From Methanoregula sp. (GTDB taxonomy: Archaea > Halobacteriota > Methanomicrobia > Methanomicrobiales > Methanospirillaceae): 29,215 bases of DNA. Numbering within the stretch: position 1 is the stretch's first letter; every line of letters begins with the position of its first letter. The stretch lies in NCBI GenBank assembly GCA_039698055.1, contig JBDKTL010000012.1, positions 1 through 29,215 on the forward strand, written 5' to 3'. The position numbers and the translations under genes are program-made. Positions 1 to 24,687 of the stretch are shown in pieces. The notes beneath the pieces were generated by a model that was not told the origin of the DNA, did no database searches, and saw only the letters and a program-made list of their open reading frames with translations.

Positions 1-2642
<2,642 letters not shown>

Positions 2643-2765
2643 ATTCTAGTACTCTTTGATGTTGAACCCATTTAACGTCCAGAGTGCTAAACCATTACAC
2701 GGCATCGTCAGGTCATTAACCTTCAGCCCTTCCCGGGAGATTCACATCTCCAGGTGCATCGAAAG

Positions 2766-2838
2766 TGGACTCAATAGGATTTGAACCTATGGCCTCCACC
2801 CCACAAGGGTGGCGCTCTTCCAACTGAGCTATGAGCCC
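2766..2838 (-). tRNA. Spacer tRNA with tRNA-Ala body but anticodon TGT (Thr) in the canonical register
   Basis: GGGCTCA TA GCTC AGTTGGAA GAGC G CCACC CTTGTGG GGTGG AGGCC ATAGG TTCAAAT CCTAT TGAGTCC A. It is 73 nt with all four stems paired, G3:U70 and discriminator A73, and sits at the 16S-23S spacer position where Euryarchaeota carry tRNA-Ala(UGC). The anticodon at 2803-2805 reads TGT. Confidence 0.95.
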
Positions 2839-2899
2839 TCTGCTTTATTGACACTGGCTATTTTGTGTTCTGTTCAGCAACTGCCAAATCCAATTCATT

Positions 2900-4366
<1,467 letters not shown>

Positions 4367-4416
4367 TCTAAATTGTACACTTGTACGCACACTAAATATC
4401 TGAACCTTATATTCGA

Positions 4417-4460
4417 GGAATTAGCGGTTACTAAACAAATTTCCGCATTGCCAGTATCAA
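4417..4460 (-). other. 5' arm of the pre-16S processing stem (pairs with 2848-2891)
   Basis: Leader TTGATACTGGC...TTTGTTTAGTAACCGCTAATTCC is complementary (with G-U pairs) to trailer GGATTTGGCAGTTGCTGAACAGA...GCCAGTGTCAA. A central internal loop resembles an imperfect bulge-helix-bulge motif. Confidence 0.8.
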
Positions 4461-4526
4461 CGTCAGAACCAACTCCGGTCAAGCCGGGTCGCGTTGGATC
4501 TCCATCAAAGAAAATTCTTGTAATCG

Positions 4527-4845
4527 TTCGTCGTGTTTTTCACTTAAACACGGGCTAATAACATATGATTCAAGGATATTTATACCTTGTTACTTGCTGA
4601 TTTTCCCATCAGAACCAGAACCGTAAAACCGGTTTTCCTGGTTCTTCATCGAGGGTCGCTTTATGTGAACTTCGTCGTGTTTTTACACGCATTCACGGGC
4701 TTACAATGTAGGTTCCGGTATTATTTATACCTTGTTGCCTGCACTGTTTTACCTCGAAACCGACACCAGTCCCGTGGACTGTTTTCGTCGGTTTGTCATC
4801 AGAAATTGTGGATCTACATATAGCATAGTCAACCATTTAAACATT
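4527..4845 (-). promoter_or_regulatory. Three tandem rRNA promoter units
   Basis: AACAAGGTATAAATA (TATA at 4577-4584 and 4722-4729) and ACAATGTTTAAATG (4834-4841). Each TATA lies 50-51 bp from a shared TTCGTCG motif (+ strand starts 4527, 4671, 4784). Units 1 and 2 also share CACGGGCT. Confidence 0.8.
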
Positions 4846-5384
4846 GTCCATGATGCAAAGCCCATTTCTCCCCTGTATTTTATTATCCGGAAACTATTTT
4901 TCCGCATCATAAAGACAGAACTGGTTCAGAATACGGTTTCTGCCCCGGATTCTGGTTGTATGCATCATTTTTGCCGTACTGCGCGAACCGGCCCGGAAAC
5001 CTTTCGGACTCATTCTTTTTTGTGCCGGAGTGGTATGAGCGCATTTTGGGGATTACCTGCATTTACGTCATGGATGCGGTGATCTGCAAAAAATCCGTCC
5101 GGATGCTTGCCGCAATCGCGCATTGCCGGAATACTCCGGAACCGTACGTCCCGGCTAACGTTGGTGTAACGATGTAGGGTCGGGTCCTTGCTTTTGTGCA
5201 CGATCTTCCGGGCTGGGACATGCGAAAGGAGAATGAGGCAGCACAGTCCTACCTGCACTTCATTTGTACCCATGCGACCCCCTCCAACAAATCTGTCCAT
5301 CAGAATTACCATTATTTTACAAAGTAAACGTCGTAATTGTTCATCATTTTCCATGAAAAATCGGGCTAAATGCTCAGGGTGTCT

Positions 5385-5602
5385 GGGGGGGTCGCATGGG
5401 TACAAATGAGATTTGGGCAACCTGTCGCGCCTGCAAAAATCCTGAAAACAACCGGGACTGACAATTATTTTCATGACGGAGATTTTTAAAAATACCTGAG
5501 CGAAACGACATCCCAGGGGCAGCGTGTTATAATAAAAAATGTACCTGCCCGACCCCCTCCCTTCGCCCTTCGGGCTAACCACCAAGGATTTATCGACCCC
5601 CC
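5385..5602. other. Structured non-coding element (nested imperfect inverted repeats); candidate ncRNA, ssDNA hairpin or non-autonomous element
   Basis: Five nested stems: 5387-5404/5540-5557, 5414-5417/5512-5515, 5423-5430/5500-5510, 5435-5441/5481-5487 and 5443-5451/5465-5473. These are followed by GCCC-TTC-GGGC (5565-5575) and a second CGACCCCCC (5594-5602). Confidence 0.55.
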
Positions 5603-5723
5603 GCATTCTTCCTTATCATACCGGATACCTGCCTCCATCTCCCTTGTATATAGTATAAGAGATGAGACCGGGCAGGAACAACGGCCACAAAGACCGATGC
5701 AGATACTCAAATAGAGATTCACC

Positions 5724-6230
5724 ATGACACAATTTCGCCAGAGAGAGGGGACAAAAAGTTCTGTCCTCCAGCTGAAAAAACCATTTCCGGAGATCAGGGC
5801 ATTTACCGCGGTTGTCCGGTCATTCATCCTGAAAAACCCGCTTGGCTGCACCTCGTACCGGAGTGCGACAAAGAACCATCTCCCTGTTCTGCGAGTGCGG
5901 GAACTGTATACGGCAAAATTCGTGTATGAGAACGCTGCTGGCAAACGGGTGGGAAGCGCGTCCGAGGTATACGACTCGGTGGAAGGCTACGAAACGGGCA
6001 TTGCTGCCGTGATCTCGAACATGGCAAATATCGCCTCCCACCATGGGAAAGTAAAACATCTTCCAGCTGCCGACCTCTTCTCCATTACGCTGAAATGCCA
6101 TGACCCAAACGGAGAGGTGTACTTTCTGAGTATTGCACGGGACCGGATGACACTCTCATCCTATAGTGATGATACGATCCGGCTCAGGGCCGAAGCCTGG
6201 GCTGACAGGGTGTTGGGGACACGGGTATAG
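5724..6230 (+). CDS. Hypothetical protein, 168 aa (resembles a multicopy Methanomicrobiales family of unknown function)
   Basis: ATG start, TATA-like TATATAGTATAAG at 5647-5659, and globular composition. Motifs NPLGCTSY, YTAKFVY, LKCHDPNGE and SSYSDD..R..E.WAD match my recollection of a Methanoregula/Methanoculleus paralog family (unverified). Confidence 0.8.
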   Translation: MTQFRQREGTKSSVLQLKKPFPEIRAFTAVVRSFILKNPLGCTSYRSATKNHLPVLRVRELYTAKFVYENAAGKRVGSASEVYDSVEGYETGIAAVISNMANIASHHGKVKHLPAADLFSITLKCHDPNGEVYFLSIARDRMTLSSYSDDTIRLRAEAWADRVLGTRV

Positions 6231-6365
6231 GCGACACCAAAACCGGTGTAATAATAGTAATGAGGATCGGCAGGATTCCGGCAGACCGTAAAAAACGGTT
6301 ACCGGTGATACAATTCCTATATACAAAAATTGATGTGCCTTCCTCATGAAGAGCGGTGATTTTAT

Positions 6366-7265
6366 TTAAGTGTCCACCCGGCAGATCTGCACGTAAATAT
6401 CCCCAAAGAACTCTTCCTGCCGCAGCGAACACCTCCCATCCAGCGCAAGGAACAGGAGCGGGATGTAGACTTCGGGGATGCCCCACCCCATCTTCCCGCA
6501 TAACTCAGTGAGCGTCATCTCCGCGTCGATATCCAGCCCTTCAAGATACTCTTCCAGCCGGATCAACGATGATTCCTGGTACCCCTCGTCATGGGCGATG
6601 CTGACAACATCATCCGCATCCGGCTCGTATGAATCCGCCGGGGGAAGCCGCCGGCGGCGACGCTCCTCTTTCTCGATATTCTTGAGTTCGATGATCAGTT
6701 CAAAGAGCGTGAAGGGGCGCTTACGCATATTCTTCCGGTCAAGCCGGCGCTGGATCTCCCGTTCGAGCCGCTCGATGGGGCCAAGCCGTCCCTCGCCGGT
6801 AAAATCCTCATCTCCCAGACCGTCGTAATCGTCACCGGAGAAACCCTCATCGTCGCCATCATCGCTCCCATCAGCGGAGAGCAGCTCAAGATGCTCGGAT
6901 TTCATGCGCAGGAGCGTTGCCGCAAAAAACAGTGTCCGCCCGGAGATCCTGAGGTTGAGCTGCCGGCGCCGGTCCAGTTCCCGGAGGAAGCGATCCGTCA
7001 CTTCCATAATATCGATGTTCCACGGGTCGATCTCCCCGCGTTCGGCCATGCCGACCAGAATTTCAACCGGATCTTCCATCTCACCGGATAGGGCCGGACC
7101 ATCTGCTGCACTACCCTCCCGGGCAGGGGGGGTTTCCCCGGGTGCCATCAACCCGTTTTCCTCGCGGAGCAGGCTCCCCGTATCGGCACCTTCCGGGCTC
7201 TCCGTAGGAACAATACGGGGGTCAGGCGCCGGTGCCTTATCCTTGCCAGCCGGCACTTTAGTCAT
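6366..7265 (-). CDS. scpA: Segregation and condensation protein A (kleisin)
   Basis: DPVEILVGMAERGEIDPWNIDI...ATLLRMKS N-terminal kleisin motif and YIPLLFLA...LRQEEFFGDIYV C-terminal motif. Start overlaps the smc stop. Carries a ~60-aa Pro/Ala/Glu-rich N-terminal extension. Confidence 0.95.
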   Translation of the reverse strand: MTKVPAGKDKAPAPDPRIVPTESPEGADTGSLLREENGLMAPGETPPAREGSAADGPALSGEMEDPVEILVGMAERGEIDPWNIDIMEVTDRFLRELDRRRQLNLRISGRTLFFAATLLRMKSEHLELLSADGSDDGDDEGFSGDDYDGLGDEDFTGEGRLGPIERLEREIQRRLDRKNMRKRPFTLFELIIELKNIEKEERRRRRLPPADSYEPDADDVVSIAHDEGYQESSLIRLEEYLEGLDIDAEMTLTELCGKMGWGIPEVYIPLLFLALDGRCSLRQEEFFGDIYVQICRVDT

Positions 7266-10200
7266 GCGCCTTTACCCCGGTAACAAGTGTGGTCTTATCC
7301 GGACGCAGGGTCACACCCATAATCCGCTGTGCTTCATCGATCATCGGCTTACGCAACGACACAATCACAAACTGCGACGTATCGGAAAGCTCTTTTATCA
7401 TCGCTGCGATGCGCTCCACGTTCGATCCGTCAAGGGACATGTCCACTTCGTCAAACGCGTAGAACGGTGCCGGGATATGGTGCTGGATCGAGAAGATAAA
7501 TGCAAGCGTTGTCAGGGACTTTTCCCCGCCCGAAAGGGACGAGAGCAGGTGGACTTTTTTGTCCCGGGGCTGGACGGCAAACGTCATCCCGCCGGTAAAG
7601 GGGTCTTCCTCGTTTTCAAGGACCAAATGGCCGCTCCCGCTCGTCAGCCGGGCAAAGATCTGGCGGAAGTTTGCATCGATTGCTTTAAACGCCGTGGTGA
7701 ATGCCTCGAACTTCATCTGTTCAAACTGTTCGATGCGTTCGATCAGGTTTGCCCGCTCGTTGCTCAGCGTCTCCTTTCGCCCGGTGCGTTCCTCAACCTG
7801 CCGCTGCACTTTATCGTATTCCTCAATGGCGAGCATGTTCACCGCACCGATCTTCCGGATCATGCCATCGGCTTCTGCGATCTTTCCTTCAATCTCGGTG
7901 ATGCCAAGGTCGGTTGTTGTTTCACCCACCAGCTCCTTGAGCTGCTCCACTTCACTACCAAGGGCAGTTGCCCGGTCCCCGAATGCATTTATCTGGATCG
8001 TAAGGCGTTCCTTGTCAGAATCAAACTTCATCAGTTTTGATTCCGAATCATGGATGCCCTGTGATATGAGCCCGCGCTTGCCCCGCAGCTCATCGAGTTC
8101 CCCGGAGAATTCCTTTTGTTTCTCTTCAAGCTCGCCAATCCGGGTTTTATTGACCGCGATCTGGTCATTTGCTGCGGCAATATCCGCGTCAATCTCCCTG
8201 GTGCGGTCGTCTTTGGTAGTGCGTTCTTTCCCGAGCTCTTCGATCCGCAGGTTAAAGTGCTGGCGTTCACGGGAGCTGTCGTTGATATCGGCTTCCTTGT
8301 TGCGCAGGCGCCGTTCCGACTCCTCGATCTCCTTTTTCTTCTTCTCCATCTGCACGGTAAGAGCGGGGATGTTGGTATCGTCAAGGCGTTTTTTGATCTC
8401 ATCGATCCGGGCTGTGATGGCACCGATCTCTTCGGTGGTCTTGTCAAGCCGGCCTTCAAGTTCTGAGAGTTCTGCCGCACCCTTGCCGGTCTCTTCTTTC
8501 TGGCGCACAACCGCTGCTTCGATGGTCTGTTTTTCAACGGTGATCGCGTCGAAACGGCGGGTATACTCTTCGGTGAACACGCCATACCGGGCAATATTCT
8601 GGTCGATCTCGCTGCGCATGGCCCGCTTTGCATCCACTTCTTCGGTCATGCGCTTGACGCCCGCTTCAAGGGTGGCAGCTTCCCCCGCAAGTTCGGACAG
8701 GTGAGCCCGTATGCGGACAACCTCGTCGTCCACCGCGGCGCCAAAACCCCGTGCCGGTTTTTTTGCTGCGCCGCCGGTCATTGCCCCGCTCTTTTCGAGC
8801 AGTTCGCCATCACGGGTGACCATCCGGTATTTGCCGATGAGTTTACGTGCCCGCTCAAGCGTGTCAACGACCACCGTACCGCCAAGAGCGACGGAAAACG
8901 CCCGGTCATATGCCGGGTCGTACTCAAGGAGGTTGACGGCATAGTCGATCACGCCGGGCTCTTTTACCGGGGGGAGTGCCGGAGGACGGAGTTTGTTGAG
9001 CGGCAAAAACGTCACCCGCCCGAGCCGTTCGTCCTTTAGGTACCGGATCGCATCTGCCGCGATCTGGTCGGTATCGCAGATCACAAAATGGAGTTTGTTG
9101 CCGGCCGCCACGTTGAGTGCCGTTGCATACTCGGGAGGCACCTTTCCCAGTTCCCCGATGGTCCCATGAACGCCTTCCATTGCCATGACGGCTTCAATGG
9201 CCCGGCCGCCGGACTCGCCCCGTGCCTGCTGGGCGGTTTCAAGACGGATTGCGTCCTGTTCGGTATCCCGCATTTCCGTCCGGATGCGTTCAAGGGATGA
9301 CCGCTGGGCAAACAGCCGGCTTTCCAGTTCGGACAAGGTTCGGTCGAGCTCTTTTTTCTGGACTGCAAGGTCTTCCCCGCCTTTCTCGCTGTCGCCGAGC
9401 TGCCCCTGTTTTGCCGCAAACTCCTCGTCCAGCTGGGCAAGAAGAGATGTCAGGCGTTCGAGCTCGGTGGTGCGCATACGGCTCTTCTCGATGAGCATGT
9501 CCTGCTCGTGAAGGATAGAAGACCGCTCACCCTTTTTCTCCTCGGCTTCCTGCAGGAGTGCGAAAAGCTTGTCCCGTGCGCCTGCCGTATCATCGGAATG
9601 AGCCTTGATATCGTTCTCGATCTTTTCGAGAAGCGCTTTTTCCGTGGCAACTTCCATGGCGATATTGGTGCGATCGATCGTAAGGGCACGGATCTGCTCG
9701 GAAAGCTCGGCTACCCGTGTTTCGGCACGCTTCGTGTCAAGGTAGATGCGGTTGATCGTCTCAAGGGTTTCCTCTTTATCCTTCCGGAGCCGGACAATCG
9801 TCTGTTCCGCAAGCCGTATCCCCCCTTTTGCCTCTTCCAGGTCCGCGATCAGCTTCAGGTAGTCAGAACCGCTCTTTTTGCTGATCAGGTCATCGATGTC
9901 CCTGAGGTCCGCGTTTAAGTAGGCCAGCTCGTTTTCCTCAAGGCTCCGGTCCGCATCGATCCGGGAACACTTAATCTTGAGTTCCTCGGCTGATTGCAGG
10001 AGGCTTGCGAGTTCTTTTTCCTTCGCGTGAAGCTGTGCTGCCGCCCGGCACCCCTGGTAGAACGCAAGGTCTTTTTGCCACTTCTGGAACTCCAGTGCAT
10101 GTTCCCGCTCCTTTTTTAGTTCGCTGACCCGCTTTGAGAGCTCGAGGAGCAGGAGCTCCTCACGTTCGATGCGTGCCCGCACGATATCGAGTTCGGAGAG

Positions 10201-10698
10201 CGCCTGCTGTTTCTTGGCATCGAACTCGGAAACCCCGGCAATCTCGTCGATGATCTTGCGGCGCTCGAAATCGCTCATCTCCATGATCCGCGTGACATCA
10301 CCCTGCATCACGACATTGTAGCCGTGCGGGATAATACCGGATTTCGCCAGGAGGTTGACGATATCGCTCTGTTTGCAGAGCCGGTCATTCAGGTAATTAT
10401 AGCTGTAATACCCGTTGCTGGTCCGCTTGATCCGGCGCCGGATCTTCGTCCCATCGGAGAACTCGATGGCAACTTCGGCGGTATTCCTGCCGGAATCGTG
10501 GTTGATCAGGTCGGTGAGTTTTTCGGCCCGGAGGTTGCGGGAGCTGGACAGCGCAAGCACGAACAGGATCGAATCGATGATATTGCTCTTCCCGGACCCG
10601 TTCGGTCCGGATATAACCGTAAAACCCTCTAAAAATGGAATTTTTGTCTTTTTTGAAAAAGACTTGAAATTATCGATCTCCAGCTCTGTGATATGCAA
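7258..10698 (-). CDS. smc: Chromosome segregation protein SMC
   Basis: NFKSF, Walker A GPNGSGKSN, Q-loop VMQG, hinge GRVTFLPL and GAMTGG, signature LSGGEKS, Walker B FDEVD, and long coiled coils. TTG start with GGAG upstream. Confidence 0.99.
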   Translation of the reverse strand: MHITELEIDNFKSFSKKTKIPFLEGFTVISGPNGSGKSNIIDSILFVLALSSSRNLRAEKLTDLINHDSGRNTAEVAIEFSDGTKIRRRIKRTSNGYYSYNYLNDRLCKQSDIVNLLAKSGIIPHGYNVVMQGDVTRIMEMSDFERRKIIDEIAGVSEFDAKKQQALSELDIVRARIEREELLLLELSKRVSELKKEREHALEFQKWQKDLAFYQGCRAAAQLHAKEKELASLLQSAEELKIKCSRIDADRSLEENELAYLNADLRDIDDLISKKSGSDYLKLIADLEEAKGGIRLAEQTIVRLRKDKEETLETINRIYLDTKRAETRVAELSEQIRALTIDRTNIAMEVATEKALLEKIENDIKAHSDDTAGARDKLFALLQEAEEKKGERSSILHEQDMLIEKSRMRTTELERLTSLLAQLDEEFAAKQGQLGDSEKGGEDLAVQKKELDRTLSELESRLFAQRSSLERIRTEMRDTEQDAIRLETAQQARGESGGRAIEAVMAMEGVHGTIGELGKVPPEYATALNVAAGNKLHFVICDTDQIAADAIRYLKDERLGRVTFLPLNKLRPPALPPVKEPGVIDYAVNLLEYDPAYDRAFSVALGGTVVVDTLERARKLIGKYRMVTRDGELLEKSGAMTGGAAKKPARGFGAAVDDEVVRIRAHLSELAGEAATLEAGVKRMTEEVDAKRAMRSEIDQNIARYGVFTEEYTRRFDAITVEKQTIEAAVVRQKEETGKGAAELSELEGRLDKTTEEIGAITARIDEIKKRLDDTNIPALTVQMEKKKKEIEESERRLRNKEADINDSSRERQHFNLRIEELGKERTTKDDRTREIDADIAAANDQIAVNKTRIGELEEKQKEFSGELDELRGKRGLISQGIHDSESKLMKFDSDKERLTIQINAFGDRATALGSEVEQLKELVGETTTDLGITEIEGKIAEADGMIRKIGAVNMLAIEEYDKVQRQVEERTGRKETLSNERANLIERIEQFEQMKFEAFTTAFKAIDANFRQIFARLTSGSGHLVLENEEDPFTGGMTFAVQPRDKKVHLLSSLSGGEKSLTTLAFIFSIQHHIPAPFYAFDEVDMSLDGSNVERIAAMIKELSDTSQFVIVSLRKPMIDEAQRIMGVTLRPDKTTLVTGVKAHD

Positions 10699-10710
10699 AG
10701 ATCCGGCTCC

Positions 10711-11271
10711 TTATTTTTTTGAAGAGTCGGTTTTTTCTTCCTCGGCAGCGTAGATAAGATCGCTCTGTTTGGCCTTGACAGATATACCCTTCTTGTTGCG
10801 CCCGTATCCGGCTGAAGCGACGATATAGTTCTTGTCACCCCGCCGCTCTTCCATCTTCATGGTGCCGTCGGGCTGCATGATCATATCCATGGCCGGTGGC
10901 ACAGGTGCTGCCGGGGCTGCAGGTTCTGCCTGCCGGCTCCCTTTTCGCATGATGACGGTGCTGCCGCTGCCGGATTCTATACCGGGAGTCACTCCCTGCA
11001 CGACCGGCTGCATCCTCTTAAGCTCCTGGCGGCTGCGTTCCTCGGTCTGCTTGGACATCTTCATCGCTATGGACTTAAGATCTAAAAGCTCCTGCGTGAG
11101 ACCCTTCACGAGTGCTTCCATATCCCTGACCTTATTCTCCAGCGCTGCAACGCGGTCCTCGCCTGCAGCACCGCTCCCTGAACTTTCCATCATCGTAACC
11201 AGTTTCTCCTTTTCATTGAGCTCAAACTCAAGGTACCTGATCTTTGCATCCGGTTGCGCCATTATTCGCAT
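10711..11271 (-). CDS. Hypothetical coiled-coil protein, first gene of the smc operon (start may be 11262)
   Basis: Heptad segment RVAALENKVRDMEALVKGLTQELLDLK, then a low-complexity linker and MIMQPDGTMKME. Stops 12 bp before smc. TTTATAA box at about 11303-11309 (minus strand). Confidence 0.9.
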   Translation of the reverse strand: MRIMAQPDAKIRYLEFELNEKEKLVTMMESSGSGAAGEDRVAALENKVRDMEALVKGLTQELLDLKSIAMKMSKQTEERSRQELKRMQPVVQGVTPGIESGSGSTVIMRKGSRQAEPAAPAAPVPPAMDMIMQPDGTMKMEERRGDKNYIVASAGYGRNKKGISVKAKQSDLIYAAEEEKTDSSKK

Positions 11272-11522
11272 GCCTTATATTATATAATGGTGAGGTTCTC
11301 CCCTTATAAATAATATTACTGATCATCACACCAGAAAAAAAGGTTTGTGCCTGCCTTTTTGCGGCACAGCGGTTCCGGGTCTTCATTTTTGGTATACCGG
11401 TCTGGTTCATGCGCTTTTAACCGGAACTATCGTATCCAGCGGGGCACCCGGGCGTCCGGCGGCACGCAATTGCTGAAAGTTTAAGAAAAGGTATTACCTC
11501 TTAAAGACGAACCCTTCTGCAT

Positions 11523-12761
11523 ATGTCGTATCTTTCCCAAACTGATCCAGAAATTGCAGATATCATTGAGAAGGAACGGCTCCGCCAGACAAACGGTCTC
11601 GAACTCATTGCGTCCGAGAACCTTGTCAGCCACGCGGTGCTCGAGGCGATGGGGTCAATCATGACCAACAAGTACGCCGAAGGCTACCCCGGCAAGCGCT
11701 ATTATGGCGGGTGCGAGTTCCACGATATGGCGGAGAACCTTGCCCGTGACCGGCTCAAAAAGTTGTTTGGAGCCGAACATGCAAACGTCCAGCCCCACTC
11801 AGGTACCCAGGCGAACATGGCAGTCTATTTTGCGTACATGAAGCTGGGAGATAAGATCCTGAGCATGAAGCTCAACCAGGGCGGCCACCTTTCTCACGGT
11901 TCGCCGGTCAGCTTTACCGGGAAATTTTACCAGGTAGCCCAATACGGCGTTGACCCGAAGACTGAAATGCTCGATTACGGTGCAGTCGAAGAGATGGCCC
12001 GGGCAGAAAAGCCCCAGATCATCGTCTGCGGTGCGTCGGCTTACCCGCGGACCATTGATTTCAAGGCGTTCCAGGAGATCGCCGATGGTGTCGGGGCGTA
12101 CTGTATGGCAGATATCGCCCATATTGCCGGGCTCTGTGCCACGGGGGTTCACCCGACCTCGGTCGGTGTTGTGAACTTTACCACGACCACCACCCACAAG
12201 ACCCTTCGCGGACCCCGTGGCGGCGCTATCATGTGCAACAGCGAGTATGCAGCGGCGATTGACAAGGCAGTCTTCCCGGGTATGCAGGGCGGTCCCCTGA
12301 TGCACACGATCACGGCAAAGGCTGTATGTTTTGAGGAGGCGCTCAAGCCTTCATTCAGGGAATACAATAAGCAGATTGTGAAGAATGCAAAAGTTCTCGC
12401 AGAGACCCTGATGACCAACGGCCTGCGACTTGTATCGGGCGGTACCGATAACCACCTGATGCTCATCGACCTGACCAACCAGCACCTGACCGGTCTTGAA
12501 GCCGAGGTAGCTCTTGGCAAAGCCGGGATTACCGTGAACAAGAACACAATCCCGAATGAAACCAAGAGCCCGTTTGTGACCAGCGGTCTCCGGGTCGGCA
12601 CGCCGGCTGTGACATCACGGGGCATGAAAGAGGCAGACATGCGCCTGATCGGCAACTGGATCTCGCGGGTGATTAAAGACATCCAGAGCGAGGCCACCAT
12701 CGCCAAAGTCCACGCTGAAGTCACCGAGATGGCAAAGAAATTCCCGATCTACCCCTCGTAA
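11523..12761 (+). CDS. glyA: Serine hydroxymethyltransferase (bacterial/THF type)
   Basis: [31 protein letters not shown]-lysine motif [19 protein letters not shown]. Confidence 0.99.
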
Positions 12762-12783
12762 GGGCATGCTAAAGGATATGGCC

Positions 12784-13629
12784 ATGGGTATCATTCTCGA
12801 CGGAAAAAAGGTATCGGAAACACGGCTCGGGCGCTTAAAGGAAGCGATTGGTGCGTCCGGGCTGCACCCCCGGCTTGCAACCGTGATCGCAGGGAGCGAT
12901 CCTGCTTCCCGGATGTACGTGCGAATGAAACACCGGGCCTGCGAGCGGGTTGGCATCGGATCGGTGGGCATCGAACTGCCGGCTGATGCAACAACGCAGG
13001 TAGTGACCGATTCTATCGCCCGGCTCAACGAGGACCCGGATATCGATGGCATCCTCGTCCAGCTCCCCCTCCCAAAACCAATCGATACGGATCGCGTGAT
13101 TGCATCCGTGCAGACACACAAGGATGTCGACGGGTTTCACCCGGAAAACCTCGGGCTCCTTTTTTCCGGCAGGCCACGGTTCGCACCCTGTACTCCGCTT
13201 GGGATCATGACCCTGCTTGCGGAATACGATATCAGGCCGGCCGGTGCCCGTGTGGTTGTCCTCGGGCGGAGCATCGATGTCGGCCGGCCGATGGCGGCAC
13301 TCCTGACCAATGCGGACGCAACGGTGACAACCTGCCACAGCAAAACCAAAAATCTCACTGAAGAGATACAACGGGCAGACATCCTCGTGTCAGCGATAGG
13401 TAAACCCCTTTTTGTCAAAGTGGCGAGGGTAAAACCCGGTGCCGTTGTCATCGATGTCGGCATCAACCAGCTGAACGGGAAACTGGTCGGCGACGTGGAT
13501 TTTGATGCGGTCAAAGAGATCGCGTCTGCCATCACGCCGGTTCCGGGCGGGGTTGGCCCGATGACCATCGCAACGCTCATGGAGAACACGTTCACTGCGG
13601 CGAAGTTGAGATCATGCAACCCTGCCTGA
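12784..13629 (+). CDS. folD: Methylene-THF dehydrogenase/cyclohydrolase (alternative starts 12766, 12778)
   Basis: [46 protein letters not shown]. Confidence 0.98.
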
Positions 13630-14426
13630 TTAACAAAATAGCGGTCGGGGGTTCTGCTCCCGTACGCCTCATGGGTGTCATCAACTGCAGCCCGGAATCG
13701 TTCTATACCGACTCGTTTGTCCCCACCAATGAAGTCCATAAAAAGGCCGTGGAGATGATCGAGCAGGGTGCAGATATGGTCGATATCGGCGCCCGGAGCA
13801 CAGCACCGAACGCTCAGGCGATCAGTGGGAGCGAAGAGGGCTCCCGTATGGAAGCCGCGTTAAAGGAGCTCGATGGGAGCGGTATCACTGTATCGGTGGA
13901 CACGATGCACCCGGGCGTGCTGGATATCTGCTTACGACATGAGATCCACGCGATCAATGATATTGCCGGGCTGATGTCCCCGGCATATGCAAAAAAGGCC
14001 GGGGATTCCGGGCTGCCGGCGTTTGTAATGGCATCCCGGGCACAGCCGGGCGATGCCGTGGGCGTTGACGAGACCCGTGCGGCCCTTGAACTGGTCATGC
14101 GGCGGTGCGAAGAGGCAGGAGTGAACGAATACGTGCTCGATCCCGGAATCGGGATGTGGACTCCTGCCCGTTCACCGGACAATGACTGGGACCTGTGCCG
14201 GCATTTCGAAACGTTTCAGGCTTTGGATCGCCCGCTTCTTGCGGCAGTATCACGCAAGACGTTTATCGGCGAACTGCTCAAACGGGAGCCGATCGACCGT
14301 CTGTATGGATCTATTGGCGTCACGATGATGATCCTGGAGAAAGGTGCATGCATCGTGCGGACGCATGACGTCAAAGAGACAAAAGATGCGATCCGGGTGT
14401 TCGAGCGCATGGGAAAGACCCCATGA
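13614..14426 (+). CDS. folP: Dihydropteroate synthase
   Basis: [45 protein letters not shown]. Overlaps folD. Confidence 0.95.
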
Positions 14427-15199
14427 AAAGCTCCTTTTCAGTATTCGGGCTTCCGACCGGCATTATCACCTCAGGGGAGTCCATCGCCGGGCGGGTCGTC
14501 AAAGCAGCCCTGCGGGAATGCGGGGGATTTGAAGACGACGATATTCTGGTGCTCGCAGAGACTGCGGTAGCGACAGCGGAAGGAAATATCGTCCGGCTTT
14601 CCACGATTACACCCTCGAGTCGGGCACAGGAACTGGCGGAGAAATACCAGATGGACCCCCGGACGGCTGAGGTCGTCCTCAAAGAGAGCGATTCCATTGT
14701 CGGGGGCATCCCCGGTTTCCTGCTGAGCATGAAAAACGGCACCCTGCTCCCGAACGCCGGCGTCGATGCCTCAAATGCCCCACTGGGGTGCGTTACGCCC
14801 CTGCCGGTGGATCCGGACCTGAGCGCAGTTACCATCAGGGATAAGGTAAAAGAGCTGACCGGCAAAACAATCGCAGTGATTATTGCCGACAGCCGCACTC
14901 ATGCGATGCGCCTTGGGTGCAGCGGTGTTGCAATCGGCTGTGCCGGGATCCCGTCAGTCCTCGATGACCGGGGCAGGAGCGACCTGTTCGGGCGCAAACT
15001 TGAGGTGACAAAACGGGCAGTTGCCGACAATATCGCATCGGCTGCCGAACTGGTTATGGGTGAAGCGGATGAGTGCACACCTGCCGCGATTGTACGGGGG
15101 CTCGGGCTTCCTCTCGGGGATCATACCGGTGTCGAGACGATTGACGCAACGGAATGCCTGTTCATGGGTGTGTTCCGGAACAGCCGGGCTGACTGGTAA
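14423..15199 (+). CDS. cofE: CofE-family gamma-glutamyl ligase (F420-0:glutamate ligase or folylpolyglutamate synthase-like paralog)
   Basis: NAGVDASN, PVDPD, IIADS, DDRGRSDLFGRKL, VADNIASAAELVMGEADE..P. ATGA overlap with folP. Confidence 0.9.
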   Translation: MKSSFSVFGLPTGIITSGESIAGRVVKAALRECGGFEDDDILVLAETAVATAEGNIVRLSTITPSSRAQELAEKYQMDPRTAEVVLKESDSIVGGIPGFLLSMKNGTLLPNAGVDASNAPLGCVTPLPVDPDLSAVTIRDKVKELTGKTIAVIIADSRTHAMRLGCSGVAIGCAGIPSVLDDRGRSDLFGRKLEVTKRAVADNIASAAELVMGEADECTPAAIVRGLGLPLGDHTGVETIDATECLFMGVFRNSRADW

Positions 15200-15203
15200 G
15201 GGA

Positions 15204-15211
15204 TTTTTTTT
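15204..15211 (+). terminator. Oligo-T archaeal terminator of the glyA-folD-folP-cofE operon
   Basis: T8 run 4 bp after the cofE stop codon. Confidence 0.5.
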
Positions 15212-15336
15212 AGGAAAACTTTGTTTTCAGGCAATTTCCCTTTCGCGTCTTTAATAGGATCTAGAAAATGATATCATTCAGATTTGCCGTGGGATGTGGA
15301 AATGAAAATTAATCGATACGGATAATTGTCCTCCAA

Positions 15337-15477
15337 CTACGCAATTACCTTCACCACCGCCCCAGCCAGCCGCCCCTGCATTCCCACCCTTTCTTTCAGT
15401 TGTGATTCAAGGGCATCGCACAACGCCATAAGCGCATCAACCTTCGCAACGATGTGGTGGTGTTCGGCGAGCGGGGG
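15337..15477 (-). pseudogene. hsdS: 3' remnant of type I R-M specificity subunit (copy 1)
   Basis: Translates PPLAEHHHIVAKVDALMALCDALESQLKERVGMQGRLAGAVVKVIA*, the HsdS conserved PPLxEQxxIV helix. There is no upstream target-recognition domain. Confidence 0.85.
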
Positions 15478-15605
15478 TTGGCAGGAGTTTTTATGTTGTG
15501 CACACTAATAATATTGCATAAAGAAGGGTTCTGCCAGACGGAACCTGTTGGAATGAAACAAGGGTGAAATTACGATATAAATTTCATCAGTCTCTATGAG
15601 AATTT

Positions 15606-15695
15606 GCAAAAACTTTATAAGATTTTGAATGAATGTATATGTGTTATACCCGCTACCGTCCTGACACTTCTTGGGACGGTAGTTTCTTCTTCTTA
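15606..15695 (+). promoter_or_regulatory. BRE/TATA promoter of the NYN gene plus leader hairpin and pyrimidine tract
   Basis: GCAAAAAC-TTTATAA (15606-15620). Stem CTACCGTCC (15653-15661)/GGACGGTAG (15674-15682) is followed by TTTCTTCTTCTT. Confidence 0.65.
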
Positions 15696-15714
15696 GGTTG
15701 TTTATTGTAAATTA

Positions 15715-16242
15715 ATGACTGGCCGCGTCGCTGTTTTTATTGATAATGGTTATTTATCAAAGGCCCTGAATGATGGTATAAAAATCGACTTCGTAAAATT
15801 TTGTGATACTGTCTGTGGTGATAAAGAACGCCTCAGGACATATTTTTACGACTGTAAACCGTACAAAAGTGAACCCCCGACGGAAGAAGAAAAAATCAAA
15901 TCCAGCCAGTATGATAAATTTGCCAATAAGATAGAAGCTCTTCCACGGTTCCAGATGCGGTTTGGTAAATTGCGCAAGAACAGAGATGGGACATACGAAC
16001 AGAAGCGTGTCGATATCCTTCTCGCCGTAGAGTTAGTCCGGTTGAGCTGGTCAGGCCAGATACAATATGCAGTCATTGTAACCGGCGACAGCGATTTTGT
16101 TCCGGCAATTGAGGCTGCGAAAGATGCAGGGGTTATAACGAAATTGTATTATTCCCGTCGATCTGTTCATGACGAACTCCTTTCTGCTGTGGATGAGCGA
16201 TGCGAAATGGATCAGGCTTTCTTTGACATGGTCAAGCGGTGA
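15715..16242 (+). CDS. NYN-domain (LabA/DUF88, PIN-like) putative ribonuclease
   Basis: VFIDNGYL, EQKRVDILLAVE and VTGDSDFVPAI acidic motifs. Visibly AT-richer than the flanking genes. Confidence 0.93.
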   Translation: MTGRVAVFIDNGYLSKALNDGIKIDFVKFCDTVCGDKERLRTYFYDCKPYKSEPPTEEEKIKSSQYDKFANKIEALPRFQMRFGKLRKNRDGTYEQKRVDILLAVELVRLSWSGQIQYAVIVTGDSDFVPAIEAAKDAGVITKLYYSRRSVHDELLSAVDERCEMDQAFFDMVKR

Positions 16243-16318
16243 AAACGGAATCATCGAATAAAAATCACTCGAAATAATCTATTTTTTTAGAGACCCGCAT
16301 ATGCCACTCTTTATATCC

Positions 16319-16499
16319 CCCCACCTGCTTCACCACCGCCCCCGCCAGCCGCCCCTGCACTCCCGCCCTTTCTTTCAGTTGTGATTCAAGGGCATCGCAC
16401 AACGCCATAAGCGCATCAACCTTCGCGACGATCCGGTACTGTTCTGCAAGAGGGGGGAGGGAAACCGGGATTGTTAAGAGATCGTTTTGGGAAATGCTC
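16319..16499 (-). pseudogene. hsdS: 3' remnant of type I R-M specificity subunit (copy 2)
   Basis: Translates SISQNDLLTIPVSLPPLAEQYRIVAKVDALMALCDALESQLKERAGVQGRLAGAVVKQVG. It is immediately preceded by an in-frame TAG and has no TRD. Confidence 0.88.
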
Positions 16500-16632
16500 T
16501 ATAATAATATTCGTTAGATACGTGGCTTTAAACCCCAAGTATCAGTTCTAGCAAGACTTTGGGTGAAGAATGGGGTTTTAGGTGCAAAGCCCCTTCACCA
16601 AGAATCCATCCCTTTGTAAAAAAAAGATCTCT

Positions 16633-17007
16633 CTAATTTTCCGTTGTAACCGTGTAGCTTGAGTTATACTGGCAGTCGAGATCGGAAAATTCTGAAAACG
16701 ACCACCGTTCAATCCGTTTTTCCACGGGGTTCATGACCGGGATATCGATCGTTGTGGACTGGGGATGGCAGTAAAGGGTCAGGGGGAGCAGGTTTACCGT
16801 CAGTTCGACATTGTAAAAGGTCGTATTGGTGGGGTTTTCCACACGGAAATCAGCGGTATAGACATCGAACGAGCCCGCGGTCACGGTCGTGATATCGCCG
16901 ACATCGGGCTCAGTGATCTTGATATTGGTATTCTGTGTTTTTGACACGCAGCCGGCACAAACCAGCAGCATAACCAGTACTACCAGGAGAGCGGAGACAT
17001 ATTTCAT
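16633..17007 (-). CDS. Hypothetical exported lipoprotein
   Basis: Signal peptide MKYVSALLVVLVMLLVCAGC with lipobox-like AGC. The mature part is beta-rich with two further Cys. Confidence 0.85.
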   Translation of the reverse strand: MKYVSALLVVLVMLLVCAGCVSKTQNTNIKITEPDVGDITTVTAGSFDVYTADFRVENPTNTTFYNVELTVNLLPLTLYCHPQSTTIDIPVMNPVEKRIERWSFSEFSDLDCQYNSSYTVTTEN

Positions 17008-17111
17008 TGCATCGCGCCAGCATGAGGGTTTGGATCGTTATAGAGCATTTTTTTCACCAGCGGTTAATCAAAGGGCCGCGTATCCCCGCAGGCAATGACA
17101 CCGGCAGCCGG

Positions 17112-17546
17112 TCACTTGACGACCAGCACCTTGCACTGCGCTGACCGTATCACCGACTCTGCGACGCTCCCGAGCAGCAGGCGCTCCAGCCCTTTTTTCC
17201 CATGGGAGCCGATCACGAGCAGGTCGACCTTTTTTTCATGCGCCAGTTTCACGATCTCTGGTGCGGGGGTGCCTTCAAGAACCGACATTTCCACCGCCAC
17301 ATCCCCGGCGAGGGCCTTCACCCGCGACAGCGCCTGGCTGCCCTCTTCCTGGAGCATGTGGTAGGTATCCCCCAGCGGGAGTTCCCCCGACGTCGAAGAG
17401 AACGCGCTCATATCGATAACGTACACCGCATAGACAGTTGACCCGCACGCACGGGCGATCCGAAGTCCCTCATCCAGAGCGGACCGGTTTTTCTCTGAAC
17501 CGTCCGTAGCTATCAGGATTTTCCCAAACAACGCCTTTTCCGTCAT
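17112..17546 (-). CDS. Universal stress protein
   Basis: KILIATDGS, G.PAPEI, DLLVIGSHGKKG..RLLLGSVAESV. GAGGTG ribosome-binding site before the ATG at 17546. Confidence 0.97.
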   Translation of the reverse strand: MTEKALFGKILIATDGSEKNRSALDEGLRIARACGSTVYAVYVIDMSAFSSTSGELPLGDTYHMLQEEGSQALSRVKALAGDVAVEMSVLEGTPAPEIVKLAHEKKVDLLVIGSHGKKGLERLLLGSVAESVIRSAQCKVLVVK

Positions 17547-17578
17547 AGATTCACACCTCTGCACGGGGCATATACATC

Positions 17579-19369
17579 CTACTTTGCATGCTCTCCCGAT
17601 ACCTGTTGCGATCCGGCAGCGGGACGGCGATCCTTCTCTGCCCCGTCAAGTTCTTGCACGTACTTCTCTCCCCGCATCATGCAGAACAGCGCCGCAACAA
17701 ACGAGAGTCCCGCACCGATGTAAAACGAGAGGGCAAGTGACGGCATGAATGCCTGTGCAAGCATCGTCGGGAACCAGATGCTCCCGGTCAGCGTTGCAAG
17801 GGTAGCCGGGGCGACCGCAACCAGCAGAGCCGGCGACATTCCGGAAAGGATCATCTGGACCGGGTTATAGCCAAGGAACGCGGCAAACAGCGCACCGGTG
17901 GGGGATATGGTGCTCATCGCGGGGACAAGCTGGACTGCCCCGGCGCTTGTCAGGCCTGCTGAAAGTGCGTGGGGAAACTCACGGGTGAGGCCAAACACAA
18001 TGATCGTAAAGAACATGCCCATACTCAGGACAAACCCGGAGTTCATCAGCGTCGACATCATGCCGGAAGTGACACCACGCTCGGCAGGGGGAACAGAGTT
18101 CATGATCGCCGCAGCATTTGGCGAACTGAACATGCCGTTTCCAAGGCCCATGATCAGGAGCGCGAGTGCAAAGGGCAGGTAGTCGAAATTGTAGGGAAGA
18201 ATCGCAAGGATCAGGAACGATATCCCGACGAGCACCATCCCGAATGTGCTTATCCAGCGGGCACCATACCGGTCGGAAATGATGCCGGAGAGCGGGCCCA
18301 TGATCACAAACCCGATGGTCAAAGGCAGCATGTAGACGCCGGCCCAGAACGGTGTCGATTCAAAGCTGTAGCCATGCAGCGGCAGCCAGATCCCCTGCAG
18401 GAGAATGATGAGGATGACCATCACCCCGCCCCGGGCAAGGGCAGAGAGAAAACCGGCCGCGTTCCCGTAGGCAAAATTCCGGATTTTAAAAAGGTCAATC
18501 CGGAACATCGGGTTCTGTACCCTGCTCTCGATAAGGGGAAATGCAGCAAGGAGTATGACCCCGGCGACCAGCGATGCGATGACAAGGGGATTGCCCCATC
18601 CCATGGAAGAGTCGCCGTACGGCACCAGTGCGTACGTGATGCCGATCAGCAGGATCGTCAGGCCGCCAATGAAGGTGATATTGCCCCAGATGTCGATCTT
18701 CTGTGGCCGTCTCTCAAAGGCGGGCTCTTTAAGTTTGAGAAATGCCCAGATGGTGCCAATTACCCCAAACGGCACGCTGATAAGAAACACGTACCGCCAG
18801 TGGAAGACAGCGAGGATGCCCCCAATCAGCAGGCCGATAAACTGGCCCGAGAGCGCGGCAACCTGGTTGAGCCCGAGCGCCTTTCCCCGCTCATCCGGCG
18901 GGAAGGCATCGGTGAGGATCGCGGCGCTGTTGGAGAAGATGAACGCCGCCCCGATTGCCTGGATGATACGGAATATAATCAACTCGATGGCGCCGGTATT
19001 GCCGGTATCGGGCGTGAGAAAGAGGAGAAGAGAGCCAACAGTAAAGATCCCAAACCCGATGTTGTACAGCCTTACTCTCCCGTACATGTCCGAGAGCCGG
19101 CCGAAACTGAGCAGGAGCGTGGCAGTAACAATCCCGTACCCCATCAGGATCCAGAGCAGGTACTGGAATGAGGTGAGCGGGTCGATATGGATGCCATTAA
19201 AGATTGCCGGGAGAGAGATGAGGATGATGCTCCCGTTGACGGCGGCCATGAACATGGCAATTGTCGTGTTCGAGAGCGCCACCCATTTGTAACTGGTGCT
19301 TTTGCCTTCGGGTCCTGCGGCACCGCCGGCCTGAGTCTCATGGGATGTTGTCGTTTCCAAGATAATCAC
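17579..19369 (-). CDS. MFS transporter, DHA2/EmrB-like (14 TM)
   Basis: Motif [10 protein letters not shown] and [35 protein letters not shown], and many hydrophobic helices. The start codon is uncertain. Confidence 0.95.
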
Positions 19370-19582
19370 CGGATAGAATGGTCAAGGATAAAAATACTGC
19401 GGGCACATCCCACACCACGTGAGATGGTTCCCGGTTGGTTTTCTTAGATCATTGCAGATGTACTAGTATTTGGACTCTTTTGGCAATAACAGGAACCGTA
19501 AAAAAATGCAGGAGTCAATAAAAAAAACAGGTCTTTTTCATAAAGACAGTGAGGGGAGGATAACTGACGACGATTTCACGGG

Positions 19583-20230
19583 TTACGGGGCGGCAGTGCC
19601 CGGGTGGTTTTTCCTCTCAATACCCACCCGCCCTTTTTCAACCACAAGGGCGCACCCGAGTTCTTCGAGATATTTCCTGCTCTTTCCCGATCCATGGATC
19701 AGGAGCTCCGCCAGGTCTTCTTTTTCGTCGATGTCGGTGTGCAGCCGGAATGAATCTATCACTTCGCAGGAAAGCCCGGCTTCCTCTGCGATCTTCATGT
19801 GCCGCGCAAAACTCGTGCCGTAATATTCCACGTGGAACCGGGCAGGATCCTTAATGAAAATTACGTTCGTCCCGCCGCCCCGTCCCGGGACGATTGCCAT
19901 ATCGCTTTCCGTTTTTATGACACGCCGTATCGCATCGCCCGTCGCAAGGGGCAGGTCGGCCATCAGGATCAGGGTTGGTCCCGTTGCCTGCGGGAGGATC
20001 TCATTGAGCGACTGGTTTAAGTCTGCATCGGCAATCGTCACCTGGATAAGATCGCTGTCAAAAAGATCCGTTGCCACGATAACCGGACTACAGTTCGCAT
20101 CTTTTACCGCATCCACGACATCGTCGAGCATGGCCCGGGCAAGAGTCTCACGCTCGTCCTGGCTGAACAGGCAGGACAGGCGGGTCTTGGGGTTGGCAGG
20201 TTTATAGGGGATCAGCGCGTGAGGACACAT
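19583..20230 (-). CDS. cofC: 2-phospho-L-lactate/PEP guanylyltransferase
   Basis: IPYK..NPKTRLS, AMLDDV, MADLPL, PGRGGGTN, YYGTSFARH, DIDEKEDL. Confidence 0.95.
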   Translation of the reverse strand: MCPHALIPYKPANPKTRLSCLFSQDERETLARAMLDDVVDAVKDANCSPVIVATDLFDSDLIQVTIADADLNQSLNEILPQATGPTLILMADLPLATGDAIRRVIKTESDMAIVPGRGGGTNVIFIKDPARFHVEYYGTSFARHMKIAEEAGLSCEVIDSFRLHTDIDEKEDLAELLIHGSGKSRKYLEELGCALVVEKGRVGIERKNHPGTAAP

Positions 20231-20330
20231 GACACACCGTGGTATGCGTGATAATCAAAAAAAGATGCTGATAAGTACATGGGGAAAAAAACCCTGCATT
20301 TAACATCTCCGGCATGAAAAATTAAAAGCA

Positions 20331-20810
20331 ATGGAAGACCTGACCTTCACGATACAGGAAATGCCGGAGAAGACCGTTATGGGTATCGGGCGCCGGACCT
20401 GCAATGCCGACGGCAAAAGTGTTGAGGACATACCTGCCTGCTGGCAGGAGTTCCTTGCCACAAAAGCGGCAGCAAAAATCCGGCATCGCGCCATGCCGCC
20501 ATCGATGTTAGCGGTCTATTCACACTATGACAGCGACTGGAAGGGCGAATATTCGTATCTTATCGGGTGCGGGGTAACAAAGGTGGACGGGGTCCCAAAA
20601 GGCATGACCGTTGAAAAGATCCCGGCCCAGAAATATGCGGTGTTCCCTGCACGGGGCCCCATGCCGGACGCCGTTATTGGCGTCTGGGCGACCATCTGGG
20701 GATCGGACCTGCCCCGCACGTATAGTGCCGATTTCGAAGTATATGATTCCCGGTTCACCCATAAAACCAACCCGGAAGTGGACGTTTACGTCGGGGTCAG
20801 GGACGAATAA
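20331..20810 (+). CDS. GyrI-like (Cass2/AraC effector-binding) small-molecule-binding protein
   Basis: GIGRRTCN, IPACWQEF, AVYSHYDSD..GEYSYLIG, IPAQKYAVF, WATIW, RTYSADFEVY. Has no HTH. Confidence 0.9.
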   Translation: MEDLTFTIQEMPEKTVMGIGRRTCNADGKSVEDIPACWQEFLATKAAAKIRHRAMPPSMLAVYSHYDSDWKGEYSYLIGCGVTKVDGVPKGMTVEKIPAQKYAVFPARGPMPDAVIGVWATIWGSDLPRTYSADFEVYDSRFTHKTNPEVDVYVGVRDE

Positions 20811-20832
20811 TTTTTAGGAAAAATCGTTTTTC

Positions 20833-21864: not shown

Positions 21865-21997
21865 GCAAGGTCAGGCCAATGTGCAATCTGATTTTATCTT
21901 TTTTCTTCATCCTTAAAAAATCCATGCGCCCGATTTTTTTTTTAATCGTCCCGTAAGTATCGCCATCTTTTAACAGGTACAGCAGATACATTTAGGC

Positions 21998-22987: not shown

Positions 22988-23694
22988 AACAGAAAGATCT
23001 CCTGTACACAGGCAAAGCCAAATCGGTTTACCGGACCGATGCAAAAGACCGTCTCATCGTCGAATTCCGCGATGACATCACCGCATTTGACGGCGGGAAA
23101 AAGGATGTCCTGAAAAACAAGGGAAGTTATAACGCGGAAGTGTCTGCGTTTATCTTTGAATACCTTGCAAAAAACGGCATAAAGACCCATTTTATGGGGA
23201 TGCTGGATAAAAAGAGGATGATCGTCCGCCATCTTGAAATGATCCCGCTCGAAGTGATCGTGCGAAACGTCGCGGCAGGATCGCTTGTCCGCAATTACCC
23301 GATCAAAGAGGGCACGCCCCTTAACCCGCCGATCATTGTCATCGACTTCAAGGACGATTCACGGCACGACCCGATGCTCAACGACGAGATCATTGTTGCC
23401 CTGGGTATCGCGACGGTAAAAGAACTCAAAAAAATCAAAACTGTCGCGCTGGAAGTCAACCGGCTTCTTGCAGCGATGATGGCGGCGCAGGGCATCACGC
23501 TCGTGGACTTCAAGATGGAGTTCGGGCGCGGGAAAAAGACGATCTACCTTGGCGACGAGATCAGCATGGACTCGATGCGGCTGTGGGATAAAAAGACCGG
23601 CGAATCGCTCGATAAGGACGTGTACCGGTTTGAAAAAGGCGATGTGATGGCAACCTACGACCGGGTCGCCCGCCGGATCACAAAATTACCCTGA
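22984..23694 (+). CDS. purC: SAICAR synthetase
   Basis: LYTGKAKSVY, FRDDITAFDG, PLEVIVRN.AAGS, LVDFKMEFG, DEIS.DS.RLWD, LDKDVYR. GTGA overlap with cofG. Confidence 0.98.
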   Translation: MKQKDLLYTGKAKSVYRTDAKDRLIVEFRDDITAFDGGKKDVLKNKGSYNAEVSAFIFEYLAKNGIKTHFMGMLDKKRMIVRHLEMIPLEVIVRNVAAGSLVRNYPIKEGTPLNPPIIVIDFKDDSRHDPMLNDEIIVALGIATVKELKKIKTVALEVNRLLAAMMAAQGITLVDFKMEFGRGKKTIYLGDEISMDSMRLWDKKTGESLDKDVYRFEKGDVMATYDRVARRITKLP

Positions 23695-23830
23695 TAAAAA
23701 GGGTAACAGGTACACGGGCTCGGGAAATGGGATCGTTAACCCTGCTGGTACCAGCATGATTAAACGCAAAAGAATAACGTGTCCTGTGAAAAACTATCGT
23801 ATCACCCCCATATGATCGTAAGGCTGTATC

Positions 23831-24115: not shown

Positions 24116-24142
24116 ACGATCCTTGATTTTTTTTTTGTGCCG

Positions 24143-24661: not shown

Positions 24662-24687
24662 AAAAGAGATAAAAACGTTGGTTATTA

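Follow-up and report, generated by a model that had tools for sequence, protein, structure and literature searches.

A spacer tRNA of Methanosphaerula rRNA operons combines alanine identity marks with a threonine anticodon and may be retained for its shape

The spacer between the 16S and 23S rRNA genes of Methanosphaerula carries a tRNA gene in which the identity marks of tRNA-Ala are combined with the threonine anticodon UGU. This UGU spacer tRNA is neither an assembly error nor a private degenerate copy. Comparison across the order makes it somewhat probable that the gene is a redundant former decoder, retained in the pre-rRNA spacer for its tRNA shape and poor at decoding. We analysed it in a stretch of 29,215 nucleotides (the window; contig JBDKTL010000012.1, positions 1 to 29,215) from a genome bin assigned to Methanoregula sp. 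(G000), where the rRNA genes, the spacer and the tRNA are placed as follows.

2900..4366, minus strand: 16S rRNA gene (RF01959, 1565.5 bits)
2839..2899, minus strand: spacer from the 16S 3' end to the tRNA
2766..2838, minus strand: spacer tRNA, an intact cloverleaf with G3:U70, A73 and anticodon UGU; CCA is not encoded
2801..2807, minus strand: anticodon loop CUUGUGG (positions 32-38), with U34 G35 U36 at window 2805..2803
2655..2765, minus strand: spacer from the tRNA 3' end to the 23S 5' end, aligned with relatives
1..2654, minus strand: 23S rRNA gene (RF02540, 2598.1 bits), covering 1-2714 of the 2987 model positions and cut by the contig end

ARAGORN detects a single tRNA in the window (2765-2838, minus strand, anticodon tgt). 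The Rfam model RF00005 matches 2766-2838 on the same strand with 68.6 bits (gathering threshold 29, E 3.4e-13), which places the gene in the tRNA family, and the neighbouring matches are archaeal SSU and LSU rRNA genes, all on the minus strand. As read from the sequence, the acceptor strands GGGCUCA and UGAGUCC make pair 3-70 a G:U, and the discriminator is A73. The G3:U70 wobble pair and A73 are the identity marks of AlaRS, and because both are intact the spacer tRNA is predicted to accept alanine still, as it probably does. The anticodon arm is CCACC-CUUGUGG-GGUGG, the bases of the tertiary interactions and the T loop are all intact, and the predicted minimum free energy of -30.7 kcal/mol (z -3.24) is equalled by none of 200 shuffled sequences. 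An earlier note on this DNA, made from the letters alone, had described alanine identity marks, a UGU anticodon and intact stems, and these are borne out by the ARAGORN cloverleaf, the Rfam score, the fold and the reading of the sequence.

The gene thus shares features with more than one class of tRNA-like sequence. It has the G3:U70 and A73 of tRNA-Ala, on an acceptor stem that is the same as in normal spacer tRNA-Ala genes, and it lacks the NGC anticodon that reads GCN codons. It has the anticodon of tRNA-Thr(UGU) and lacks the body of that tRNA, with GGG, A73 and G37 in place of the GCC start, U73 and the A37 beside U36. It also has an acceptor stem and a T arm within a longer precursor, which are the features of a t-element. 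Annotation pipelines label this alanine-type spacer gene tRNA-Thr.

The variant is present in both complete genomes of genus g16 (Methanosphaerula), one of which is Methanosphaerula subterraneus. The complete genome G192, a single contig, has the 74 tRNA bases of the window unchanged in each of its three rRNA operons. A 441-base spacer query (window 2560-3000) is 100% identical in all three operons of G257, the second g16 genome, which is likewise complete in one contig. Contigs of X4 and X5 (DNA) and of X15 (RNA) cover 2766-2838 with no differing letter. An RNA contig of X18 departs from the window by six substitutions and by a deletion at 2641, a set that agrees in number and position with the differences between G192 and the window; all of the G192 differences fall outside the tRNA. 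An assembly or consensus error in a collapsed rRNA operon, with tRNA-Ala(UGC) as the true loop, would be in keeping with a contig that is otherwise mosaic and with another tRNA gene pair of G000 that looks recombined, but the identical loop in six operon copies of two complete genomes and in independent DNA and RNA contigs leaves it a negligible probability. The same agreement disposes of the idea that the change is private to one operon copy, which the earlier note had allowed for along with doubt about the loop letters; the contigs of X4, X5 and X15 have the loop as written. Editing after transcription, another option raised there, is unsupported, since the X15 RNA contig has the letters of the DNA, though an edited form of low frequency would not show in contigs.

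Among 151 genomes of the order searched with an alanine-type tRNA pattern, the CTTGTGG loop occurs only in G000 and, three times, in G192. A stricter full-length pattern gave one match in the species collection, Methanosphaerula subterraneus strain EG, in a collection from which records near the window may be missing. Two scans of metagenome contigs gave no match to the variant, and near records may be missing there too, so we draw no conclusion from them. Words of the spacer are present in at least 21 runs of 14 studies among the matches listed. Only two g16 species are in our collection, and between them there are no differences in the tRNA against about five in the other 172 spacer positions, a comparison without power (P 0.17). 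We found no mention of the tRNA in the literature on Methanosphaerula tRNAs, on Methanosphaerula subterraneus, on isotype/anticodon mismatch or on Methanomicrobiales spacer tRNA-Ala, where supplementary mismatch tables could list it; the portions available to us of the genome note PMC4645200, on a Methanosphaerula type strain whose complete genome has three rRNA operons, and of the tRNAscan-SE 2.0 paper likewise make no mention of a UGU spacer tRNA.

Because the contig of the window is probably an assembly mosaic of two genera, the tRNA is best regarded as a trait of a Methanosphaerula-like organism and not of the window's genome. Two further features of the window bear on this.

2985..3256: switch zone in a 150-base identity profile, with Methanosphaerula-like sequence on the side of the lower coordinates and other sequence on that of the higher ones
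4367..29215: sequence of genus-g1 type (16S leader and coding flank), with synteny to the region beside a g1 rRNA operon

In 150-base steps, identity of the window to G257 is approximately 100% between 1060 and about 3255. Over 3256-4081 both g1 and g16 match it at 94-96%, and over 4082-4381 the window is nearer g1 (96-97%) than G257 (88-91%); positions 1-1180 are just 96.4% identical to G257. The 16S gene is itself a mosaic, with a Methanosphaerula-like 3' part that reaches to about 3255 and a 5' end whose 300 bases are nearer g1. From 3256 on, the contigs of X4, X5, X15 and X18 depart from the window at the same sites. Beside the rRNA operon, window 4400-24300 aligns in long syntenic blocks with three complete g1 genomes (G020, G091 and G093) at 73-76% identity, compared with only 67-75% in short blocks for G192 and G257. 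An assembler join inside the conserved 16S is the simpler reading of this pattern, and a very recent transfer of the rRNA segment could conceivably have produced it instead.

By their identities, the rRNA sequences in the G000 bin come from at least two organisms. Besides the 23S of C12, the bin contains another 23S piece (C39:1-1772, model 1148-2973, followed by tRNA-Cys), which is approximately 80% identical to that of C12 over a 1516-base overlap and 81-82% identical to those of g1 and g16. We considered this piece as G000's own 23S, and with 80-82% identity to all three it is no help in placement. A second candidate was set aside as well, in which G000 was a basal g1 genome with a transitional spacer tRNA; an rRNA tree had put the window's rRNA sister to 25 g1 sequences, and the mosaic overturned this. 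The earlier note did not notice the probable mosaic, and users of this genome bin should be warned that its rRNA contig probably mixes two genera.

In five other families of the order and in most genera of its own family, the normal spacer tRNA-Ala has the loop UUUGCGA or UUUGCAA, which agrees with the expectation in the earlier note that relatives carry a spacer tRNA-Ala(UGC). Since related families have these loops, G37 is ancestral, and the real changes are U32C, C36U and A38G. The earlier description as three adjacent transitions therefore holds for their number and kind and fails for their adjacency, and G37 is not among the changes. The spacer tRNA is identical at 65 of 73 positions to that of genus g37, which is the sister of g16 in the rRNA tree (FastTree topology, support values uninspected). 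Three of the eight differences lie within the 7-base loop and one in the T loop, and the four stem differences form two compensatory pairs (29-41 and 51-63). The excess of differences in the loop has a hypergeometric P of 0.025. By this comparison the stems have been retained and the loop has not; further, the acceptor and the D arm are identical to those of functional spacer tRNA-Ala genes of relatives.

Compared with the euryarchaeal spacer tRNA-Ala(UGC), the gene keeps the place between 16S and 23S, the acceptor, the D arm, the variable region and the T loop. It differs in having UGU for UGC and C32/G38 for U32/A38, and in that a stand-alone gene does the decoding. We further note that in genus g35 the spacer tRNA-Ala(UGC) of G247 (L153:1699-1771, minus strand) has G38 and the anticodon stem CCACC/GGUGG as in g16, and that only positions 32 and 36 differ between the two loops. 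Despite these shared features, g35 is not adjacent to g16 in the rRNA tree.

The spacer tRNA is surplus, because G192 owns both a stand-alone tRNA-Ala(UGC) and a canonical tRNA-Thr(UGU). ARAGORN, applied to all 51 Rfam tRNA matches of this genome, yields a complete set, in which the three spacer tRNAs are joined by Ala UGC, CGC and GGC and by Thr UGU, GGU and CGU. All three canonical Thr tRNAs have a GCC start, U73 and A37, and the one with anticodon UGU has the loop UUUGUAA. The stand-alone tRNA-Ala(UGC) is also present in G000 (C7:191-262) and in both g16 genomes. Thus a further decoder of GCA codons, the need for which had been pointed out in the earlier note, does exist, as does, in G192, the normal tRNA-Thr(UGU) that it proposed looking for. 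The stand-alone gene lies 200-550 bases from a near-identical tRNA-Ala(CGC) (L122:18-367 in G192; L050, L052, L059, L063 and L064 in g1), and it probably arose by duplication and a C34U change.

This gene set bears on the proposal that the spacer gene is a genuine tRNA-Thr(UGU) charged by ThrRS. The anticodon itself suggests it, and no other canonical tRNA-Thr(UGU) was found in the G000 assembly. We consider it very improbable, as the GCC start, U73 and A37 of the G192 Thr tRNAs, which are presumed marks for ThrRS, are all absent, G3:U70 is present, and G192 has its own canonical tRNA-Thr(UGU). The missing gene of G000, a bin of 93% completeness, is likely an assembly gap, because the gene of its relatives sits at contig ends beside repeats. 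It is present in 45 of 60 g1 relatives, often at contig ends, and at L097-L108 often within about 1 kb of the end. In G004 it adjoins a repeat that matches the ends of at least 10 G000 contigs and that probably represents an insertion sequence or a hot spot for integration. With the gene repeat-flanked, the bin 93% complete and the spacer tRNA probably foreign to it, we rejected the gap in G000 as proof that the spacer tRNA is a Thr decoder.

Family f1 is the only one among the 151 genomes in which the stand-alone Ala(UGC) type is found, and g42, g35, g37 and g40 also have it. The deep-branching g39 has no stand-alone Ala(UGC) and four normal spacer copies. All matches listed in families f2-f6 and in g39 have a TTGCGA or TTGCAA loop, in a pattern-based survey of f2-f6 that aberrant spacers outside the pattern would escape and in which many genomes gave no match. 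Aberrant spacers are found only in genera with the stand-alone copy, as UGU in g16, as an 8-base loop in g42 and as a D-armless element in g1 and g12. ARAGORN finds among 27 spacer loci of the clade with the stand-alone copy 19 normal Ala(UGC), two UGU (both g16), one 8-base loop and five loci without a tRNA, which are four g1/g12 loci and one partial locus. These observations suggest that the decay of the spacer tRNA goes together with the stand-alone tRNA-Ala(UGC), in few independent events as counted on the FastTree rRNA topology with its support values uninspected. The 8-base anticodon loop, UUUGCUUG, belongs to a spacer tRNA of alanine identity in G270 (g42; L155:1698-1772, minus strand; 'tgct' in ARAGORN); it is known from this one draft genome and could be an error.

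Spacer tRNAs are usually viewed as ordinary decoders that are merely co-transcribed with rRNA. The family appears to hold a natural series that leads from the normal tRNA-Ala(UGC) through the dead or shifted anticodon of Methanosphaerula to the D-armless mini fold of g1 and g12, and all of the altered forms follow the appearance of the stand-alone gene. In genus g1, no tRNA was found in any of 29 spacer loci, and an element of 51-58 bases stands where the tRNA would be.

L068-L096, L167-L169 and L171: mini element loci of genus g1, and of G125 in g12; the T loop is conserved, and the acceptor, hairpin and T stems covary

The mini element combines an acceptor stem in which pair 3 is not G:U with one variable-loop hairpin and a T arm that has the loop GGUUCGAAUCC. 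Covariation was scored in 28 distinct sequences, one duplicate of the 29 having been dropped. In this set 94.1% of cells are paired, compared with 80.4% in shuffles, and 65 cells have double changes, compared with 20.7 in shuffles; neither value is reached in any of 500 shuffles. Related sequences can beat shuffles without structure; the slid controls, with 68% paired at most, and the three helices agree, however. In Rfam the element scores best with the mascRNA model, at a level expected by chance (16.5 bits, E 0.5, gathering threshold 42.5), which does not indicate homology, and no tRNA match was found at a loose Rfam threshold. The covariation of the g1 element suggests that this family selects for a tRNA-like spacer shape, even where decoding is impossible.

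The compensated stems and the mini element both bear on the proposal that the UGU spacer tRNA is a young neutral pseudo-tRNA, without a role and undecayed so far, whose three copies are kept alike by gene conversion. Redundancy with the stand-alone gene is what this proposal would expect, and so is the occurrence of the variant in just two closely related species, between which the absence of differences is not significant; there is also a weak hint that processing stems, and probably not the tRNA, release the rRNAs. Yet both stem changes relative to g37 are compensated, and g1 and g12, where decay has gone further, still retain an acceptor and T-arm fold with strong covariation over 28 distinct sequences. 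We regard a neutral relic as quite improbable.

The reading that we prefer, a surplus decoder kept for its shape, would run as follows. The ancestral state would be a spacer tRNA-Ala(UGC) that decoded GCA and GCG. In the clade that holds g16 and g1, a stand-alone tRNA-Ala(UGC) gene would have taken over the decoding, and the spacer copy, so freed, would have acquired U32C, C36U and A38G in its loop while compensatory changes preserved its stems. It would continue to be transcribed within pre-rRNA, from every operon, and the tRNA shape may be retained as a substrate of RNase P and tRNase Z, which would trim or clear the spacer piece after excision of 16S and 23S. A non-decoding tRNA retained in pre-rRNA was among the options of the earlier note, and it is the best fit to the comparative evidence, to the degree of being somewhat more probable than an even chance. 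A second, shape-dependent role of spacer tRNAs thereby becomes testable in a cultivable methanogen.

Archaeal 16S and 23S rRNAs are released at processing stems, and the 16S is then circularised. Release therefore need not depend on the tRNA, and its role is less obvious than in bacteria. In both X15 and X18, RNA contigs terminate at 2862/2863, and one X18 contig links 4367 to 2863 across 60 other letters. This is a weak hint that the 16S processing stem is probably cut at 2862/2863 and that the joined sequence is a circular pre-16S form. The putative cut lies 24 bases upstream of the spacer tRNA, which would be left on the remaining spacer piece.

Like t-elements (the element upstream of 5S in Haloferax volcanii, which is cut by tRNase Z, and mascRNA, which is cut from MALAT1 by RNase P and RNase Z), the window's element has a tRNA-shaped fold within a longer precursor that is unneeded for decoding. 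It differs from them in being a full cloverleaf with alanine marks, and its cleavage is putative, as is that of the mini element. The mini element resembles t-elements in that it comprises an acceptor stem, one hairpin and a T arm only. A comparable case is Haloferax, in which tRNase Z matures the 5' end of 5S rRNA, according to the available part of one report (PMC7714728).

The other role that the sequence invites is that of an active mistranslator, matured, charged with alanine and placing it at ACA and ACG at a low rate in competition with the canonical tRNA-Thr(UGU). The intact G3:U70 and A73, the acceptor and D arm shared with functional spacer tRNA-Ala of relatives, the intact tertiary-interaction bases and T loop and the presence of the gene in every rRNA operon would all suit such a tRNA. 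Its anticodon would be no obstacle to charging, because AlaRS ignores the anticodon, which is established and is also stated in the available part of a yeast study (bioRxiv 10.1101/2022.11.23.517754). Against it, C32:G38 together with G37 beside U36 is a combination that the remaining tRNAs of G192 lack, and the genome has retained a canonical tRNA-Thr(UGU). Indeed, C32 with G38 occurs in only the three spacer tRNAs among 50 tRNAs of G192, and the 12 other U36 tRNAs of this genome have A37 in every case. A37 is the site of t6A, which steadies the A1-U36 pair. Closing pair 32-38 gains 3.6 kcal/mol in the spacer tRNA against 1.6 in normal arms; normal U32-A38 arms also close in silico, which makes the difference one of degree. 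Given the possible C32-G38 pair and the replacement of A37 by G37, the spacer tRNA is expected to read ACA and ACG poorly.

Codon usage gives a second view of the same question. In 60 ORF pairs of G192 and G000, ACA aligns with Thr at 69 of 134 sites and with Ala at 13 of 134, and ACC aligns with Thr at 368 of 612 and with Ala at 41 of 612. Alanine is nominally more frequent at ACA than at ACC sites (9.7% vs 6.7%), an excess that is not significant (Fisher P 0.27), and ACA stands at conserved Thr sites about like other Thr codons. Of all Thr codons 12% are ACA, a share that lies in the range seen for other NNA codons. By these counts ACA means Thr and is not avoided, and the idea that ACA might align to conserved Ala columns finds no support; the counts show the intended amino acid, and a low error rate is invisible to them. 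We regard low-rate mistranslation as possible but unlikely.

Among known systems, Pachysolen tRNA-Ala(CAG) is reportedly a natural anticodon variant of tRNA-Ala that mistranslates. The spacer tRNA shares with such variants, including those of the yeast library, an alanine body with G3:U70 and a non-alanine anticodon. It differs in being natural, fixed, present in every rRNA operon and furnished with an extra C32:G38, and no reassignment is apparent from the codon statistics. Yeast grew more slowly with a tRNA-Ala bearing the GGU (Thr) anticodon and was minimally affected by the remaining three Thr anticodons; the authors propose that A/U-rich anticodon variants are weakened by the missing modification at position 37, as given in the part of the study available to us (10.1101/2022.11.23.517754). 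By analogy, tolerance of an alanine-type tRNA with a Thr anticodon is plausible. A stronger version holds that an alanine-accepting reader of ACA and ACG, made from all three operons, results in a growth-coupled and tolerated Thr-to-Ala statistical proteome whose error rate is tuned by the loop changes. We consider this distinctly unlikely; if true, it would be a natural statistical Thr-to-Ala proteome in a free-living archaeon, in step with ribosome synthesis. The same cultivable methanogen makes it possible to ask whether mistranslation results from a natural tRNA that unites alanine identity with a threonine anticodon.

Two observations on other tRNA genes were made in the course of these comparisons. 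G000 has two tRNA-Thr(GGU) genes (C27:139517-139591, minus strand, and C37:64268-64339, plus strand), and in each of them one or two of the acceptor pairs 5-68 and 6-67 are mismatched. Their cores are identical, and the acceptor strands match fully once the 5' strand of either gene is combined with the 3' strand of its partner. It looks as if the halves had been exchanged, either in assembly or through recombination at a tRNA attachment site. In G192, eight tRNA-Cys(GCA) genes are found (L120, L128, L133, L134, L136 and L137), three of them after rRNA operons and five elsewhere.
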